DNA of 64,000 bases, taken from assembly GCA_025361705.1 (NCBI GenBank), contig JANYJW010000039.1:16231-80230 (forward strand), written 5' to 3'. Within the stretch, counting starts at the first letter, position 1. The number at the start of each line of letters is the position of its first letter. The notes beneath the pieces were generated by a model. The model did not search any database, had not been told where the DNA came from, and worked only from the letters and a program-made list of their open reading frames with translations. Below are positions 1,927 to 49,486 of this stretch, in pieces. The position numbers were made by a program, and so were the translations under genes. The stretch comes from Gemmatimonas sp. (lineage in GTDB: Bacteria; Gemmatimonadota; Gemmatimonadetes; Gemmatimonadales; Gemmatimonadaceae).

Positions 1927-4900
1927 TCAGAACGTGTACTTCAGGCTCATCTGCATCTGGTAGATCGAGCTGAAGTTCTGCCGGCTCGCATAGAAGTACG
2001 TCGGGTTGAACGTGAACTTCGCCCGCGCCCCCGTGGCTCCGAGCATCGACCCGGTTTCCTTGCTGTTGTACACCAGCGGCGCATCCATCGTGCCGGACCC
2101 GACGAAGTCCTGGGCGCCCCAGTTCTTGTTGAGCAGGTTGGCCAGGTTGAAGATGTCCAGCTGCAGCGTGAGGTTGTTGATCGCCGGCGCATTGAGCGCA
2201 CTGGCCAGCCCGAGCGTGCCAAGGTTCTGGCGGATCGAGACGTTGATCATGTGGTGGAACGGCTCCAGGCAGGAGTTGCGCTCCATGATCTTGCCCTTCT
2301 GGTCGCGCAGGCACTTGTGGTTGTTGACGAACGCCTCGAACGCATCCTGCTGCTCGGCGATCGTCGCGGTCGACGTGGCCACGAAGATCACTTCGTTCGA
2401 GTCGCGGACGTTCGACGGGATGTACATCAGGTCGTTCACCTGCCCGTCGGCGTTCAGGTCGCCACTGCCGCCCGAGACGGCGTAGTGGAAGCGCTGGCCG
2501 CTCTCGCCGCGATACGTGCCCGAGAACGTCGTGCCCGTCTTCGGGAACGTGTACGACCCGGCGGCGACGATGCGGTGCGGCTGCTCGAACACCGAGTGGC
2601 CGAGCTTCTGGGCGTTGATGTCGCCCTGCACCACGGCGCCAAGCGGCTGGCCAAACTTGTACTGCGACAGCGCCGTCGACGACGTCAGGTTCATCACGTC
2701 GAAGGCCTGCGAGTAGGTGTAGAACAGCGAGCCCTCGAAGTTGCCGCGGTACTTGCGCGTCAGGCCGGCCGTGTACTGGTAGGAGTAATCCTTGGAGTAG
2801 TTGGAGACCGTGATCACCGCGCTGCGCGTGCCCTTGTAGACCGGCGAGCCGATCTGCGTGCCGTACATCGCGCGGCCGTGGCGGTCGTAGCCCTGCAGGC
2901 CCGTGAGCGCCTCGTTCTTGTAGTACCAGGCGTTCAGGCCCTTGGTGTACATGCCTTCGACCGTCGCCACCCAGCCATCACCGATCGCCCGGTCATAGCC
3001 GAACGAGGCGCGCGAGCTGGTCGGGAACTTGACGTCCTTGCCGATATAGTCGATCTCGCCCGTCGTCGACAGCGGCGCGGGCGTGGTGCCCGAGGCGCAG
3101 GCGAGCGGCGGCGAGGCGATGGTGCCCAGCGAGAAGGTCGGCGCCGGATTCGCCGTCGTGTTGCAGGTGAGCTGCGAGAACCCGGTCACGCCGGAGTTCT
3201 GGAACGAGTTCGACATCCAGACGAAGGCCGGACGGCCCGTGAAGTAGCCCCAGCCGCCGCGCAGCTGGTTCTTGCCGTCGCCCGTCAGGTCCCAGTTGAA
3301 GCCGACACGCGGCGAGATGACGGTGTTGCCGCTCGGGATCTCCGAGGTGTTGATGCCGTACGCCGACTCCACCAGCGGGTTCAGCGGCGGCTTCTTGTCA
3401 AAGACCGACACGTCGGAGCGGACGCCGTACGTGATCGCCAGGCGGTTGGTGGCCTGCCACACGTCCTGGATGAAGAACGCGTTCATGTGCTGGCGGAAGT
3501 GCACCTGCCCGTCCTTGCCGTCGCCCGGAGCCGAGACGAGGTAGGAACTGGCCTTGCCGGCCTGGAACTCGTCGAGCGAGTTGAACGTCCAGTTGCCGAA
3601 GATGTTCTGGCCGAATGCGTTGCGCACGAGGTAGAACGAGTTCTGCGTGCCGATGGACACCACGTGCTTCAGGCCGATCGGCATCGACAGCTGGTCGTTG
3701 ACCTCGACGATGTCCTGGTCGAGCTCGTTGAGCTGCGACGAGTTCTCGGAGCCGCCCAGCATCGTGATGCCCGACGATCCCTTGACCGCGTACTGCGGCG
3801 TGCCCGGCACGAACAGGGCGCGCTTGTCGCGGATCTTCGTGTAGCCGACCGAGAGTTCATTGTAGCCGCGGGCGCCGAACGCCGAACGCAGCTGGGCCAC
3901 CCACGCGCTCTTGTCGCTCTTCATCGTGTAGCCGTTGTCCAGCATCTTGAAGCTGGTCGACGTCAGGCTGCGGCTGAAGTTGTCCTGCTGTGAGTGCGCG
4001 TAGTTGTTGCGCAAGGTCAGCGTGGAGTTGAACGGCAGCTTCTGGATGTCGAGACGGATGAACGAGTTGGTCAGCGGGTTGGTGTTCTGGCGCGGACCGC
4101 CGTCCGTGGGCGGCAGGTTGTAGCTGGCCGCGATCGACGCAAGCCGCGCGGCATCGGCAGCCGACGGAATGTTCGAGAAGGGGCCACCGAGGTACGGGCC
4201 GCTGGCCGGCTGGGCCTGACCCTGCACTTCGAAGTTCGTGAAGAAGTGGATGCGGTCCTTGATGATCGGGCCGCCCAGCGAGAAGCCGGTCTGCGTCTGG
4301 CGGAACTTGGTCACGTACGGGAGCTGGCGCTCCATCTGCTGGTCGCGGAAGTACCAGTACGCGCTGCCGAACGTCTTGTTGGTGCCGCTCTTCGTGACGG
4401 CGTTCACCAGCAGGCCGGCGAAGTTGCCGTAGCTCACGTCGTAGGGCGAAAGCAGCACTTGGTACTGCTTCACCGACTCGACGCCGATCGACTTGCCGCC
4501 AGCCTGTCCGCCCGGCTGGCCCGACGAGCCGAGGCCGAACAGGTCGGTCTCGTTGGAGCCGTCGATCTGGATGTTGTTGTACCGGTTGTTCGCGCCGCCG
4601 CCCGACATGCCCGGGCCGCCCATCGACACCTGCGGCGTGAGCGCCACAAAATCGGTGAAGTTGCGGTTCAGCGTCGGCAGGCGCCGCATCGCCGAGTCGC
4701 CGAGCGTCGTGCCCACGCCGGTCTTGGACGACGTGATCACCGGGTCAATCTCGGCGCTCACCGTCACCTGGCTGAGCGTCGTCGCCTGCTGCGTCAGCTG
4801 CACGTCGACGCGCGTGGCCTGGCCCAGCGTGACCGCCTGGTCGGGCTTGGTCACCGGCGCAAAGCCGATGCGACGCACCGTCACGGCATAACCGCTGCCC

Positions 4901-14855: not shown

Positions 14856-16634
14856 TCAGGGCGCAACCGCCGCGCCATCCCTCCGTGGATCGGCCACGCC
14901 AATCAGCGTGCCTTTCACCACGGCAATCGCATGGACGCCGCCGAACATGATGTCGCCGACGCGCGAGAGCGGGTAATAGCCCTTGGCGCGCAACGCGGCG
15001 TAGACCTCGGGCGCGAAGCCGGATTCAACCTCGACCGAACGCCCCTGCGCGGGTTGGAGCCGCGGCGCCGCGATGGCGGTCCACGGGTCTTCACCAAGGG
15101 CGAGGTGGCGCCAGGCCACCTGCGTGGTGGACGTCGGGATGTACTGCGAGCCGGCGGCACCCACCACCATGCGCACGTCATTGCCGCGCAGGATGATGGT
15201 CGGGTTGATGGTCGAGCTGGCGTAGCGGTTGGGGCCGCGCGTCGATGCATCGAGGTTGGCCGCGCCCGAATTCAGGAAGAACCCGTTCACGTACACCCCC
15301 GACCCAAACAGCACGCCCACGGTGAACGTCATCGACACCGCGTTGCGGTCGCGGTCGACCACGCTGAAGTGCGTGGTGTTCGATCCGCCCCATGCGGCGT
15401 CATCATCGCCACCCGGACGCGGCGCGCGCGGCGCGGCCACCTTGTCCGGGCCAAGGGCGCTTGCCCCCCAGCCGTCGAGTGCGGCGCAGGCGCCCGTGGG
15501 CGCCACCGCATCGTCGGGCCACGGATCACCCGCCACCGGGGCGACGCCGCCCTCGGCCGCGGCCACCGCACTCGCGCGCTTGGCAGCGAACGCCGGGCTG
15601 ATGAGCCCGCGCGCCGGGACGGCGTAGTAGGCCGGATCGCCGCGGAAGCGGCCAGCGTCTCCCTCGGCGACGCGAAGCGCGCCGAGGATCTGCACCGCTG
15701 CGGCGCCCTGCGTCGTGGGTGAACCCAGCGGCACGCTGTTGGTCACGGCCAGCAGGTTGAGCGCGGCGAGCGGCACCGCGCCGCCGAGCGGCGGCGGCGC
15801 GGACAGCAGCGTGTGACCCATCCAAGTGGTGCAGAGCGGACGCTGGAACGCCACCGGATAGCCCTTGAAGTCGGCGGCGGTTGCGGCGCTGCCATACTTG
15901 CGCATCCTGGCCACGGTGCGCTCGGCCATCGCGCCTTCATAGAACGCGGCACGGCCGTCGCGCGCGATCGCCTCGAGCGTCTGCGCGAGCTGCGCCTGCA
16001 CCAGGCGCTCGCCCGGACGCAGCGCCTGGCCGCCCGGCAGGAAGAGCGCAGCCGCGGCGCTGTCGGCGGTGAGCTTGGCCCGCGACGCTTCCGCCGTGCG
16101 CGCCAGAAGCGGCGAGACGATGAAGCCGTCGCGCGCCAGCGCGATGGCGGGCGCCATCACCTGGGCGCGCGGCAGCTTGCCCCACTTGGCGTGCGCCTCG
16201 AGCAGGCCCGCCACGGCGCCGGGGATGCCAGCGGCACGACCATTGATCGGCGCCCGAGCGGCCGCGGAGTCCATGCGGGCCCAGTCGGCATCGGCGCCCG
16301 TGCGGGAGTAGAACTCCAGGGCGTCCGCGTGCGCGGTGCCGTGATTCCAGACGACCATTCCGCCACCGGCACCCAGCCCCGTCTGCGAGGGGTCGACGAC
16401 GGCGAGCGCAAAGGCCGTGGCGACGGCGGCATCGACGGCATTGCCCCCTTCCCGCAGAATCGTTGCGCCGGCTGCCGCCGCATCGGCGTGCGATGCCGTT
16501 ACCATGCCTTGTGTCGATTCGGCGCGCTTGGCGTACATCGGCGGCGATGCGACCGGCTGCGGAATCCCGCACGCGGTGAGCAGGGCGGCGCCCAGCATCA
16601 GGGCGCGCGCGCGGGTGGCGAGGGAAGGGGTCAT
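14856..16634 (-). CDS. ggt: Gamma-glutamyltransferase
   Basis: Autoprocessing/catalytic segment NTTHFSVVDRDRNAVSMT and the GSG...GFFLNS motif. Lipoprotein-like signal MTPSLATRARALMLGAALLTAC. Start at ATG 16634. Confidence 0.9.
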   Translation of the reverse strand: MTPSLATRARALMLGAALLTACGIPQPVASPPMYAKRAESTQGMVTASHADAAAAGATILREGGNAVDAAVATAFALAVVDPSQTGLGAGGGMVVWNHGTAHADALEFYSRTGADADWARMDSAAARAPINGRAAGIPGAVAGLLEAHAKWGKLPRAQVMAPAIALARDGFIVSPLLARTAEASRAKLTADSAAAALFLPGGQALRPGERLVQAQLAQTLEAIARDGRAAFYEGAMAERTVARMRKYGSAATAADFKGYPVAFQRPLCTTWMGHTLLSAPPPLGGAVPLAALNLLAVTNSVPLGSPTTQGAAAVQILGALRVAEGDAGRFRGDPAYYAVPARGLISPAFAAKRASAVAAAEGGVAPVAGDPWPDDAVAPTGACAALDGWGASALGPDKVAAPRAPRPGGDDDAAWGGSNTTHFSVVDRDRNAVSMTFTVGVLFGSGVYVNGFFLNSGAANLDASTRGPNRYASSTINPTIILRGNDVRMVVGAAGSQYIPTSTTQVAWRHLALGEDPWTAIAAPRLQPAQGRSVEVESGFAPEVYAALRAKGYYPLSRVGDIMFGGVHAIAVVKGTLIGVADPRRDGAAVAP

Positions 16635-16767
16635 GGCAGGATGGGGGTGAAAAGCAGCACCGGGTGCGGCACGCATGCCGCACCCGGTACTCTAACGTCC
16701 TCGACGCGCCACACGCTGACCGTTCGTCAGGAGACGCCCCCCGCCGCGCCCGTGCCCGGTGGCGGGA

Positions 16768-17082: not shown

Positions 17083-17542
17083 GGCGCACTCCCCCGCTGC
17101 GCCCGACCGTCGCGCTCCGCGATGCCCTACCGGTTGCCTCGCGCGGTCCACTCGGACCCCTCGCTCACCTTCGGCAGCCGGACAATCTCGATGCCCTGAG
17201 ATTCCTGGCTTTGCGGCCCCGCCTCACGACGGGTGTGCTATTGTCGGGTGTTGCAGCGTTCAGTTGTTGCCCGATAGCAATGCGAGAAACGTGCCATATC
17301 TCACGAAGTGATAACTCCATGATGCAGAGTGACTTACACGACTATCACAACGTGACGGCGATCCGCAGGCCTGCGTGCTGCGAGGCAGAACGCACAGCGC
17401 GCGACACCGTCTGATTCGGTGATAGTCACGACGCGCGGGCGAAGCGTCACAACGCGGGCGCGGGCCCGGGAGATGCACCCACGGGCGCAGGTGGCGCGCG
17501 GCAGCGGACGTGGTCAAGCGCGAGGCCCATCTGGATCGTACG

Positions 17543-46797: not shown

Positions 46798-47220
46798 TTA
46801 GGCCGAGGTCAATTTGCGCAGGGCGGCGCGCGCCGTCTCGCGCTGTCCCCACGTCGGCGTCATTTCGCGGCCTGCAGCAATGCACTTGGACTCCGGCATG
46901 GCGGTGGACGGGGCACCCATTGGCAGCCATGCCGTGACGCATCGCATGACGGCCTCTCCCTCGTCGCGCGTCCAGCCGACCGTGGCCCCCGGGGCCAATG
47001 GGGCGGCCGACGACGTCCGTGGCGCACTGGCCGGCGGCGGCGATGCCGCGCCGCCGCCGGCCACCACCTGCGCGCGAATCAGCTCGGCGGCTTCCCGCAC
47101 GAAGATGCCAGAGCGCGATTTCGCCGTCTCCGACCGCACCTCGCCGCGATACAACGCGTGCACCGACGCCTCAACCTGCGTGGCCAGTCTGCCCAGTACG
47201 TCGATGATCTCGTCCGCCAT
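46798..47220 (-). CDS. Hypothetical protein
   Basis: ATG with a plausible helical N-terminal half, lying upstream of the kinase on the same strand. No domain recognised. Confidence 0.45.
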   Translation of the reverse strand: MADEIIDVLGRLATQVEASVHALYRGEVRSETAKSRSGIFVREAAELIRAQVVAGGGAASPPPASAPRTSSAAPLAPGATVGWTRDEGEAVMRCVTAWLPMGAPSTAMPESKCIAAGREMTPTWGQRETARAALRKLTSA

Positions 47221-47329
47221 GCGTCCTCCAGCCGACCGGTCGCCGGCAACCTTATTGCCATGCGGGGTGTTTACCCCTTACATAGGAACTTCGTCACACG
47301 CAGCGTCCTTTACCAGAGGAGCAGCATTG

Positions 47330-47914
47330 ATGCCACTTCGCGCCGTTTCGCTTGCCGTGCTCGTCGTCGCCCTCACCGGGCTGGCGGCATCGCACGCGTG
47401 GGCCCAGAGCGGCGACGGTCCCCAGGTGGGTGACATGGCCCCGGACTTCTCCCTCCCCGGCGCATCCAAGGCCGGCGTGCGCGAGAAAGCCCTGCGCCTG
47501 TCCGATTTCCGCGGGCAAGTCGTCGTCATCTCGTTCTTCCCCAAGGCACGGACCAAGGGCTGAACAGTCCAACATGAGGCGTACCGGGATCAGTACGCCA
47601 CGATCTTCAACGGCGGCAACGGCGTAGTCGCCATTTCCATCAGTTCCGATGGCGTGGACGAACTCGCGTCGTGGGCCAAGGACGCCAACTTCCCTGTCCT
47701 CTTCGCCAGCGACACATCCGGCGAGGTGGCGGCAAAGTACGCCACCACGGGCATGGGCATCGGGCCGATGAAGAAGTTCTACAAGCGGGTGGTCTTCGTG
47801 GTGGGACCCGATGGGCGGGTGGCGCACGTCATGCGCCCGTTCTCGGCCCTTTCACAGGAAGCGTACGTGCAGCTCGACTCGGTTGTCGACCGGGTGGCGC
47901 GCACGGGCCGGTAG
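47330..47914 (+). CDS. Secreted BCP/PrxQ-type peroxiredoxin with in-frame TGA (47561-47563) at the peroxidatic position; candidate selenoprotein (alternative: nonsense pseudogene)
   Basis: ORFs 46814-47563 and 47654-47914 share one frame with only this single stop between them. GAGGAG lies 8 nt before ATG 47330, and the signal peptide is MPLRAVSLAVLVVALTGLAASHAWA. FFPKARTKG-TGA-TVQHEAYRD fits the PxxxTxxC motif and E. coli Bcp YFYPKAMTPGCTVQACGLRD. Confidence 0.6.
47578..47599 (+). promoter_or_regulatory. SECIS-like hairpin downstream of the in-frame TGA
   Basis: 7-bp stem ggcgtac / gtacgcc with an 8-nt loop cgggatca. The stem starts 14 nt and the loop 21 nt after the TGA. Confidence 0.45.
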
Positions 47915-47967
47915 GCGGCAACCCAGGGGCCCGCAGGGCCGGGGGAAGCGTCAATTCAGCGTCATAG

Positions 47968-48007
47968 GAGGGGGGCGGCGGGCGCGCGAGCGCCGACCGC
48001 CCCCCTC
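47968..48007 (+). terminator. GC-rich hairpin downstream of the peroxiredoxin
   Basis: 11-bp stem gaggggggcgg / ccgcccccctc with an inner ggcgc/gcgcc stem. No T tract. Confidence 0.45.
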
Positions 48008-48142
48008 GTCTCGCCAAGTGACAGCCTTCTGACGGTGCCCTTCCATCCTCCATCCGTCGAATTGCCCCCGCCGACGAAGGTGCGGGCACGCCGGTGCGGG
48101 CGGAGCTCCTGCCGGACCGGCATGCACTCTTCGGGACCCGTC

Positions 48143-49486
48143 ATGTACCCTGTGTCAACCGTTCGTTCGTCGATTCCGTCCATTCGCACGGGTGCGGTGA
48201 CGGTGCGCGACCTCTTCGCCGCATCGCTCATCGCCGCCGACCCAACGGCCTTCACGGCGCGCGCGGTGCGCCTGCGCATCCCGGCTGACCGCAGCGCGGC
48301 TCGGCCCACGTGGATCGTGGCCCTGGGCAATGCGGCGATGACGATGGCGCGGGCGGCTGTGCACGAACTGGGGGAGCGCAACACTCCCATCGCCGGCGGC
48401 ATCATCGTGACACCGACGGTGAGCGATGTGCCGCATAAGGCGTTGGTGTCGGTGGCGGGCGACCATCCGCTGCCCGGGCTGCAGTCGTTTGCCGCAGCCG
48501 ACGCGCTGTCCGATTTGTGCGGGCGGGTGACCGGCGACGACCGCGTGTTCGTGCTGCTTTCGGGTGGCGCGTCGAGCCTTGTGGGCGCCCCGGTGGATGG
48601 TGTGGCTGAGGGCGACCTCGTCGCGCTGTGCAACACCCTCATGCGGTCGGGCCTCGACATCGGCCGGGTCAATGCGATTCGCAAGCGCTTCCTGCGCTGG
48701 GGGGCGGGACGCCTCGCCACGCAGCTTGCGCCGGCGCGTCTTGAGCTCATCGTGCTGTCGGACGTCATCGGCGACAACCTGGCGAACATCGCATCGGGGC
48801 CGTGCGTTCCCGACTCGTCCACGGCGGTCGACGTCCGCCGCCTGCTGGACGAAACCTCGCTTGTGGAGCAGGTGCCTCCGCGCATGATGCGCTACCTCGA
48901 CGAGGTGATGCACGGCGCACGTCCGGAGACTCCCAAGTTCGACGCACCCGCCTTCCTGTTCGCCGGCGTCCCGGCCGTGCAGGGCAACAGCGGGGTGCTC
49001 GATGCCGGTGCGCTCCGCGCGCGCGTGCTCGGCTTCGACCCGGTGGTGATCGTCAACGAACCGCTGCACGGCGAGGCCGCGCAGACGGGCGGACGCATCG
49101 CCGCCGCCGCGATGGCACTTCCCCGCGGCAGCGTCGCCTTCTGGGGCGGCGAGACCACGGTGACCATGGGCACGGTCGCCTCGCTCGGCGGCCGGTGCCA
49201 GGAGATGATGCTCGCCGCGGCCATTGCCCTCAATGACGCGGGTTCCGACGCCAGCGGCGTCACCATCCTCGCGGCCGGCACCGACGGCCGCGACGGCCCC
49301 ACCGATGCGGCGGGTGCGATCATCGATGCCGGCACCGCCGCACGCATGATGGAAGCAGGCATGGATCCGAGGAGCGCCCTGCATCGGCACGATAGCTACG
49401 AGGCGCTGCACCTCGCGGGCGGGCTGCTCAAGACGGGTCTCACGGGGACCAACGTGGGTGATGTGGTGATTGCGGTGAGGCACTGA
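48143..49486 (+). CDS. Glycerate 2-kinase / hydroxypyruvate-reductase-like (DUF4147 + MOFRL)
   Basis: VFVLLSGGASSL, NAIRKRFLRWGAGRL, GGETTVT and AAGTDGRDGPTDAAGA segments. Alternative ATG start at 48122. Confidence 0.85.
   Translation: MYPVSTVRSSIPSIRTGAVTVRDLFAASLIAADPTAFTARAVRLRIPADRSAARPTWIVALGNAAMTMARAAVHELGERNTPIAGGIIVTPTVSDVPHKALVSVAGDHPLPGLQSFAAADALSDLCGRVTGDDRVFVLLSGGASSLVGAPVDGVAEGDLVALCNTLMRSGLDIGRVNAIRKRFLRWGAGRLATQLAPARLELIVLSDVIGDNLANIASGPCVPDSSTAVDVRRLLDETSLVEQVPPRMMRYLDEVMHGARPETPKFDAPAFLFAGVPAVQGNSGVLDAGALRARVLGFDPVVIVNEPLHGEAAQTGGRIAAAAMALPRGSVAFWGGETTVTMGTVASLGGRCQEMMLAAAIALNDAGSDASGVTILAAGTDGRDGPTDAAGAIIDAGTAARMMEAGMDPRSALHRHDSYEALHLAGGLLKTGLTGTNVGDVVIAVRH

Follow-up and report, generated by a model that had tools for sequence, protein, structure and literature searches.

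A peroxiredoxin gene of Gemmatimonas sp. with a very probable selenocysteine codon at its peroxidatic position

Positions 47330-47914 of a 64,000-nucleotide stretch of Gemmatimonas sp. DNA (assembly GCA_025361705.1, contig JANYJW010000039.1) are very probably occupied by one functional gene, which encodes an exported peroxiredoxin of the BCP/PrxQ type, with selenocysteine (Sec, U) as the predicted peroxidatic residue at an in-frame UGA codon, 47561-47563. The whole stretch is referred to here as the window. The gene had first been proposed from the letters of the window and a list of its open reading frames (ORFs), and we refer to that proposal as the original prediction. Homologues that carry TGA at this codon are called Sec-type below, and those that carry a cysteine (Cys) codon there are called Cys-type.

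Translation of the plus strand from ATG 47330 gives one in-frame stop before the terminal TAG, the TGA at 47561-47563, and the two ORFs listed for the region (46814-47563 and 47654-47914) share a common frame. The read-through product contains no Cys residues. A basic n-region, a hydrophobic core and an A-x-A site in its leader point to a signal peptide, and comparable leaders are found in every full-length Sec-type orthologue. The original prediction had described the sole stop, the common frame, a GAGGAG Shine-Dalgarno sequence and a signal peptide, and translation and inspection of the sequence agree with it on each, with the GAGGAG located 8 nt before the ATG (Table 1). It had also asked for a second look at the base call at 47563. 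The same TGA is present in three Logan contigs (L081-L083) that were assembled independently and are 99.9% identical to the window, and a base-call error is therefore excluded.

Gene callers do not recover the full-length product. The gene is called as separate proteins of 77 and 86 aa in the window and again in L081-L083. In protein databases, 14 clusters are more than 60% identical to the window protein, and each consists of a C-terminal fragment of 115 aa whose start lies just after the TGA. Full-length database homologues reach at most 57% identity and all bear Cys, with no close Cys form among them. The whole close clade is therefore of the TGA type and is split by gene callers everywhere, just as the original prediction had expected the gene to be annotated in pieces. 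TGA is also the commonest genuine stop in the window, ending 18 of the 38 confident genes (TAG ends 15 and TAA 5), so UGA is not generally reassigned. When we scanned the window for TGA codons with coding-like GC content at third codon positions on both sides, the peroxiredoxin was the single credible case.

When the TGA is read as Cys, the product scores 86.2 bits against the Pfam AhpC-TSA family PF00578 (E 2.3e-24, curated cut-off 26 bits). The matched region, residues 33-166, extends across the TGA. The product also matches Redoxin. The best solved relatives in a phmmer search of the PDB were 2ywn (E 3.6e-13), then 2cx3, 5epf, 3hjp and 3drn, which are BCP/PrxQ proteins; this group made up most of the PDB sequence matches, and Tpx was the weakest. 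The TGA column falls on the peroxidatic Cys of the solved BCP/PrxQ proteins (FYPAAFTQVCT in 2ywn, FFPKARTKG[U]T in the window), and the segment KRVVF, which contains R153, is aligned with the KR of 2ywn, 2cx3 and 5epf that carries the active-site Arg. Across the window protein and 37 Cys-type homologues (38 sequences), P71, T75, C78 (the TGA) and R153 are invariant columns. The original prediction had put the TGA on the catalytic Cys of a Bcp-like enzyme by alignment with E. coli Bcp and had noted a conserved Arg. Alignment to solved proteins gives the same placement for the TGA and finds the Arg in its expected register.

Within this family the assignment is less specific. The best NCBIfam match was Bcp (PRK09437) at 72.6 bits against an equivalog cut-off of 140, and PrxU (NF040737) scored 39.7 bits against a cut-off of 270, below equivalog level. 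As a structural proxy we used a modelled Cys-type homologue (P0008) that is 54% identical to the window protein (predicted local distance difference test score 87.9, predicted template modelling score 0.80). Its top PDB matches were Bcp4, BcpB and Prx1-type proteins, all with a probability of 1.00; template modelling scores, normalised to target length, were 0.83-0.84 to Bcp4 and BcpB with a maximum of 0.84, and BCP and Prx1 ranked about equal in the fold search. As judged from this proxy, the predicted fold of the window protein is the thioredoxin-type peroxiredoxin fold. Its sequence identifies it as a putative peroxiredoxin of a divergent clade that is most like BCP/PrxQ.

Many BCP/PrxQ members, although not all, have a resolving Cys five residues after the peroxidatic Cys (Cp). 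In the window protein this residue is absent and Glu takes its place (U78-TVQH-E83). Every one of the 106 full-length Cys-type homologues has exactly one Cys, so the clade is of the 1-Cys type, and this fits the 1-Sec mechanism that the original prediction had proposed from the lack of any other Cys.

The TGA is shared by many relatives. A homologue scan limited to one genome per species returned 80 loci, and with the window counted in, TGA is found at the same codon in 20 loci, namely the window, 10 further Gemmatimonadota loci and 9 loci of other phyla, with TGC or TGT at this column in most other homologues. Five of the Gemmatimonadota loci (L001-L005) belong to groundwater metagenome-assembled genomes whose proteins are 82-86% identical to the window protein, and the remainder (L009, L010, L012, L013, L032) are more distant, so that the 11 Gemmatimonadota TGA loci span about 45-90% protein identity. 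The nine loci of other phyla (L038, L043, L045, L047, L050, L051, L056, L068, L072) come from a deltaproteobacterium, Acidobacteriota, Bryobacterales, Neomarinimicrobiota and Gammaproteobacteria. Every complete Sec-type locus is open upstream of the TGA, where a hydrophobic leader is encoded, and for 110-116 codons downstream of it; L010 and L032 are cut off by a contig end. An alignment of orthologues for Cys codon versus TGA, which had been suggested with the original prediction, thus yields a Sec/Cys pair at this column.

Both sides of the TGA are under constraint. In the close clade formed by the window and L001-L005, the ratio of nonsynonymous to synonymous substitution rates (dN/dS) is 0.128 on the 5' side of the TGA and 0.146 on its 3' side, and there are no indels in the 116 downstream codons. 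This is the signature of one protein under purifying selection and not of a dead 3' remnant. The gene order Ser/Thr kinase, peroxiredoxin, DUF4147/MOFRL is conserved in L001-L005, with a 140-aa gene detected between the kinase and the peroxiredoxin in L001 and L005, and the Cys-type genes L006 and L008 lie at the same locus with DUF4147 downstream. By this shared gene order, the peroxiredoxin loci are orthologous.

A hairpin follows the TGA and is a candidate bacterial selenocysteine insertion sequence (bSECIS). It lies at the same distance from the TGA in all 11 Gemmatimonadota Sec-type genes and is identical in them except for G or U at loop position 3, the window having G-G at loop positions 2-3 and the sister clade G-U. 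According to the legend of Fig. 2 in PMC13188914, a bSECIS has an apical loop of 3-9 nt, an upper stem of 4-16 bp, a minimum free energy (MFE) of -7.5 kcal/mol or lower, a G within the first two nucleotides of the loop with G or U after it, and a distance of 16-37 nt from the UGA to the loop. An assessment of the region near the TGA for such an element had been suggested with the original prediction, and the hairpin of the window agrees with all of these published rules (i-iv), with an 8-nt loop that starts C-G-G, a 7-bp stem, a distance of 21 nt and an MFE of -11.8 kcal/mol.

Stable folding at this place distinguishes the two types of gene. Nucleotides 12-45 after the UGA, folded sequence by sequence, had a mean MFE of -11.8 kcal/mol in Gemmatimonadota Sec-type genes versus -7.2 kcal/mol in 24 Cys-type genes (Mann-Whitney p 4e-5), and in other phyla the means were -10.5 kcal/mol for 9 Sec-type versus -5.6 kcal/mol for 33 Cys-type genes (p 6e-5). 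The stems of the Sec-type genes from other phyla differ in sequence (GCGGGCUC/GAGCCCGU, GGCGCUG/CAGCGCC and GGCAUACCA/UGGUAUCGCC) and their loops are mostly CGUGA. RNAalifold returned no consensus structure for an ungapped alignment of 13 sequences across phyla, in which the hairpins stand in slightly different registers.

The nucleotides of the hairpin are conserved beyond what the protein asks of them. In codons +3 to +13 after the UGA, 18 of 375 synonymous comparisons among Sec-type Gemmatimonadota differ (4.8%), versus 33-37% elsewhere in the gene, and all 18 differences fall at the CGG/CGT site. Within the close clade the count for the same codons is 0 of 165, versus 25-34% elsewhere. Codons +14 and +15 are likewise invariant in the synonymous profile, and the frozen stretch extends past the 7-bp stem, which may point to a weak lower stem or to additional contacts. 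Where a Cys-type gene encodes the same peptide, these sites vary freely and carry CAG, TAT, CGC and GAC, whereas Sec-type genes are fixed on CAA, TAC, CGG/CGT and GAT. Of the 18 Sec-type genes with an Arg in the loop, 17 have CGG or CGT as its codon; among Cys-type genes the codon is CGC in 39 of 46.

Co-occurrence of the hairpin with TGA was examined in metagenome contigs, which were scanned for TGN-ACN-GNN-CAA-NNN with the exact hairpin after it; any base was allowed at the third position of TGN. At least 120 contigs carry the exact hairpin, and among the matches listed the codon is TGA in 120 of 120, with no Cys or Trp codon. The listed matches encode at least 98 distinct downstream proteins of 107-120 aa. 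The association between hairpin and TGA, a check suggested with the original prediction, is therefore present well beyond the window.

A mechanism can be outlined on the model of the established bacterial pathway. As the ribosome approaches, SelB carrying GTP and Sec-tRNA(Sec) would bind the apical loop of the hairpin at 47578-47599, which, 21 nt past the UGA, would offer G-G/U at positions 2-3 to SelB. SelB would then compete with release factor 2 for the UGA and deliver Sec there. The resulting 194-aa precursor would probably be exported by the general secretory translocon and its predicted 25-aa leader cleaved. Once in the cell envelope, U78 would react as a selenolate: activated by the surroundings of T75 and R153, it would attack peroxides and be converted to a selenenic acid. 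Because the product has no other Cys, an external thiol reductant would be required for recycling, in a cycle of the 1-Cys type that is here a 1-Sec cycle.

Table 1. Positions of the peroxiredoxin gene, its predicted signals and its neighbours in the window
Feature	Position	Strand	Description
Selenoprotein gene (complete), predicted	47330..47914	+	194 codons including Sec78; stop TAG 47912-47914; putative exported 1-Sec peroxiredoxin, BCP/PrxQ type
UGA as selenocysteine U78, probable peroxidatic residue	47561..47563	+	TGA at this column in 20 loci and three independent assemblies
Active-site motif P71-K-A-R-T75-K-G-U78 (PxxxTxxU)	47540..47563	+	PDB alignment; P71, T75 and C78 invariant in 38 sequences
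Conserved active-site Arg codon, R153 in KRVVF	47786..47788	+	Aligned to solved BCPs; invariant
Core hairpin, candidate SECIS, GGCGUAC/CGGGAUCA/GUACGCC	47578..47599	+	7-bp stem, 47578-47584 with 47593-47599; 8-nt apical loop 47585-47592
Near-frozen synonymous stretch	47570..47608	+	Codons +3 to +15 after the UGA
Shine-Dalgarno-like GAGGAG	47316..47321	+	8 nt 5' of the ATG; direct sequence reading
Predicted secretory-type signal peptide MPLRAVSLAVLVVALTGLAASHAWA	47330..47404	+	Predicted cleavage before Q26
DUF4147/MOFRL (glycerate-kinase-like) gene	48143..49486	+	Downstream syntenic neighbour; marks the locus as orthologous
140-aa gene, divergent to the peroxiredoxin	46798..47220	-	Syntenic neighbour; context only, no link to the peroxiredoxin shown

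Several results weigh against Sec insertion or against a role of the hairpin in it. Pfam scans of 40 window ORFs, which are ordinary housekeeping and transport genes, contained no selA, selB or selD domains in these 64 kb. ARAGORN found no tRNA in the window or in 43 loci, and in the metagenome loci it detected only tRNA-Leu. A tblastn search for SelD and SelA only, made with approximate E. coli queries, returned none, either in the window or across about 1 Mb of fetched loci. Absence of Sec genes from the window and from fragments of fetched loci is uninformative on whole genomes, and a Sec-decoding machinery in the source genome is assumed here. For the RNA, an Rfam search gave no SECIS match at gathering thresholds nor at E up to 10, the weak matches being due to chance, and within Gemmatimonadota the stem is invariant, with no covariation. 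The peptide A-Y-R-D-Q-Y-A accounts for part of the pairing potential, and folds of between -8.8 and -10 kcal/mol are also seen in some Cys-type genes that encode it. Compared with shuffled sequences, the stand-alone hairpin has a z-score of -1.9, and 9 of 200 shuffles fold as well. Taken alone the hairpin is weakly above chance, and its significance therefore rests on the comparative data. The original prediction had cited it as added support for Sec, and this holds through the comparison with relatives, while the fold of the window sequence by itself is barely better than that of its shuffles.

Recoding of the UGA to an amino acid other than Sec is the alternative that survives best, and we still consider it very unlikely. 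Insertion of Cys by SelB with a tRNA(Sec)-like tRNA(Cys), as described for some bacteria, would be one route, and near-cognate read-through stimulated by the hairpin would be a second route. A conserved TGA, a SECIS-like hairpin and coding constraint downstream show read-through and not the identity of the inserted amino acid, and the Sec synthesis genes are presumed. The hairpin, however, agrees with the bSECIS rules down to the G-G/U loop motif, and the recoded site is exactly that of a redox-active Cys, where Sec/Cys exchange classically takes place, in a family with a member listed as a proven selenoprotein in PMC13188914. Replacing TGC by UGA merely to insert Cys would be costly and of no evident benefit, and such systems are rare.

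The hairpin could instead be a mere by-product of the peptide EAYRDQYA with no role in decoding, since GCG-TAC...TAC-GCC is self-complementary and Ala-Tyr...Tyr-Ala is therefore prone to form one, and since some Cys-type genes fold nearly as well (L015 at -10.2 and L021 at -8.8 kcal/mol). This has little to recommend it once synonymous sites are considered, because these are frozen only in Sec-type genes, with no differences in 165 comparisons within the clade. Cys-type genes with the same peptide vary between TAT and TAC, GAC and GAT, and GCC and GCG, and have CGC where Sec-type genes have CGG or CGT. Sec-type genes of other phyla form different stems from different peptides in the same place, and the exact hairpin is not preceded by TGC or TGT in any of the metagenome matches listed (at least 120). 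The stability of the Cys-type folds, near -9 to -10 kcal/mol, looks like pre-adaptation rather than an objection, and it is plausible that Cys-type ancestors, which already encoded the hairpin-prone AYRDQYA, provide an example of a SECIS arising inside a coding sequence.

We give almost no credence to a nonsense pseudogene or sequencing error, in which the TGA would be a true stop and the product a 77-aa fragment, perhaps with an unrelated 86-aa protein: the split gene calls (77 and 86 aa, or 115-aa fragments in relatives), the normal use of TGA as a stop in the source genome and the failure to find Sec machinery in the 64-kb window or the roughly 1 Mb of fetched loci would suit it, but the TGA is fixed across the clade instead of being specific to one strain (11 Gemmatimonadota loci at about 45-90% identity and 120 of 120 metagenome matches listed, with no close Cys form among the clusters above 60% identity), the same base appears in three independent assemblies, the 116 downstream codons stay in frame without close-clade indels at a dN/dS of 0.15, and a 77-aa product would lack the catalytic Arg and most of the thioredoxin fold.

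A Sec-containing peroxiredoxin read through the UGA therefore remains our interpretation of 47330-47914, and its main value is a corrected annotation and a pointer to the use of Sec in Gemmatimonadota. Fragments stand in for the gene in at least 14 protein clusters (ENA, JGI, NCBI, Logan), besides the 77-aa and 86-aa calls here. Annotations of Gemmatimonadota therefore systematically lack what is very probably a functional antioxidant enzyme. If the interpretation is true, Gemmatimonadota of soil and groundwater decode Sec and place selenium in an exported peroxidase, which would tie selenium availability to the defence of the envelope against oxidative stress. The phylum is mostly aerobic and inhabits soil and groundwater. 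It is conceivable, though unlikely, that its members keep the whole Sec apparatus largely for an extracytoplasmic 1-Sec peroxidase, and that Sec in the active site relaxes otherwise universal constraints. The known framework of Sec decoding and peroxiredoxin chemistry is unchanged by these results.

Further features were seen at the peroxiredoxin locus and its counterparts. In 69 of the 120 listed metagenomic Sec-type relatives (L084-L203), Tyr, Phe, Ile or Val stands in place of the Pro of PxxxTxxC, as in FFYKARTKG-U, FFFKARTRG-U and FFIKARTRG-U; the window gene keeps P71, and the Pro is kept in all 106 Cys-type homologues. Eight of nine complete Sec-type Gemmatimonadota genes (window, L001-L005, L012, L013) terminate in TAG rather than in TGA, the commonest stop of the window, which may be chance with so few genes. 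Three Gemmatimonadota genomes have tandem Cys-type and Sec-type paralogues about 560 nt apart (L010 at 2074 and 2631, L012 at 2657 and 3214, L013 at 1996 and 2553), which suggests a duplication before or alongside the switch from Cys to Sec. The 140-aa gene is syntenic in both Sec-type subclades (L001, L005, L010, L012 and L013, 43-57% identity), and a Pfam search of its product in the window (46798-47220) gave no match. A scan of 47150-48150 for promoters and terminators found none. A small hairpin around the UGA, 47557-47570, was dropped from consideration as it is not conserved in relatives. Elsewhere in the window, a variant of the cyclic di-GMP riboswitch (c-di-GMP-I-GGC, RF03167) matches 17169-17248 on the minus strand (60 bits, gathering score 59, E 1.2e-11). 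A gamma-glutamyltranspeptidase gene (14856-16691, minus strand) lies directly downstream of it.

Selenoproteins of this kind are already known. Table 1 of PMC13188914 includes Prx (PF00578, TxxU) among the experimentally supported prokaryotic selenoproteins, with the motif PxxxTxxU, and the same paper cites Sohling et al. for a Sec-peroxiredoxin with TxxU known since 2001. Prx selenoproteins are recorded in 78 of about 5,200 genomes in Table 3 of PMC5029168, and as 253 Global Ocean Sampling (GOS) sequences in Table 2 of PMC2398784, which covers the Sargasso/GOS metagenomes. Sec-peroxiredoxins are common in metagenomes, and these figures do not bear out the original prediction where it has such proteins known from a few bacteria. 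It had also called a periplasmic Sec-BCP unusual for this lineage, and here too the relatives speak otherwise, as Sec-type forms with signal peptides are found in Acidobacteriota, Bryobacterales and Gammaproteobacteria; a periplasmic location is nothing exceptional. A literature search for selenoproteins or selenocysteine in Gemmatimonadetes or Gemmatimonadota found no paper in the library searched, an absence that does not prove novelty. Among the exported forms, the Sec-type peroxiredoxins of Bryobacterales L045 and L047 (upstream of position 3181) have a twin-arginine-like leader, MTRRGALLGMAALGAGVSRAA, which, if it acts as its sequence predicts, would imply export of a folded selenoprotein by the twin-arginine translocation pathway rather than the general secretory one.

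The window gene resembles the selenoprotein Prx family (TxxU) in its PF00578 domain, in the predicted Sec in place of the peroxidatic Cys of PxxxTxxU, in a bSECIS-like element directly downstream and in abundant Cys homologues, and differs from it in that the window clade is a putatively secreted, single-redox-residue, BCP/PrxQ-like group of Gemmatimonadota. PrxU of Eubacterium acidaminophilum (NF040737), experimentally shown by Sohling et al. (2001) as cited in PMC13188914, likewise has Sec at the peroxidatic position. It comes from a strict anaerobe, however, and the window protein scores only 39.7 bits against the 270 of its model and bears a predicted signal peptide. The nearest sequences are those of BCP/PrxQ proteins (E. 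coli Bcp PRK09437, M. tuberculosis BcpB 5epf and the Sulfolobus/Aeropyrum BCPs 2ywn, 3hjp, 3drn and 2cx3), which are also among the best fold matches of the proxy model P0008. The window protein shares with them a compact domain of about 150 aa and a Pro/Thr/Cp/Arg active site, but has a predicted Sec for Cys, no resolving Cys at Cp+5 and a putative N-terminal export signal. Finally, like the E. coli fdhF SECIS and the consensus bSECIS, the window hairpin lies inside the coding sequence just 3' of the UGA, with a small apical loop in which G is followed by G or U, a loop spacing within 16-37 nt and an MFE below -7.5 kcal/mol. Its loop presumably stands a few nucleotides farther from the UGA than the fdhF loop. 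Unlike fdhF, it has an unrelated stem sequence, an 8-nt loop 21 nt after the UGA and no evident bulged U, and it is a putative target of SelB.

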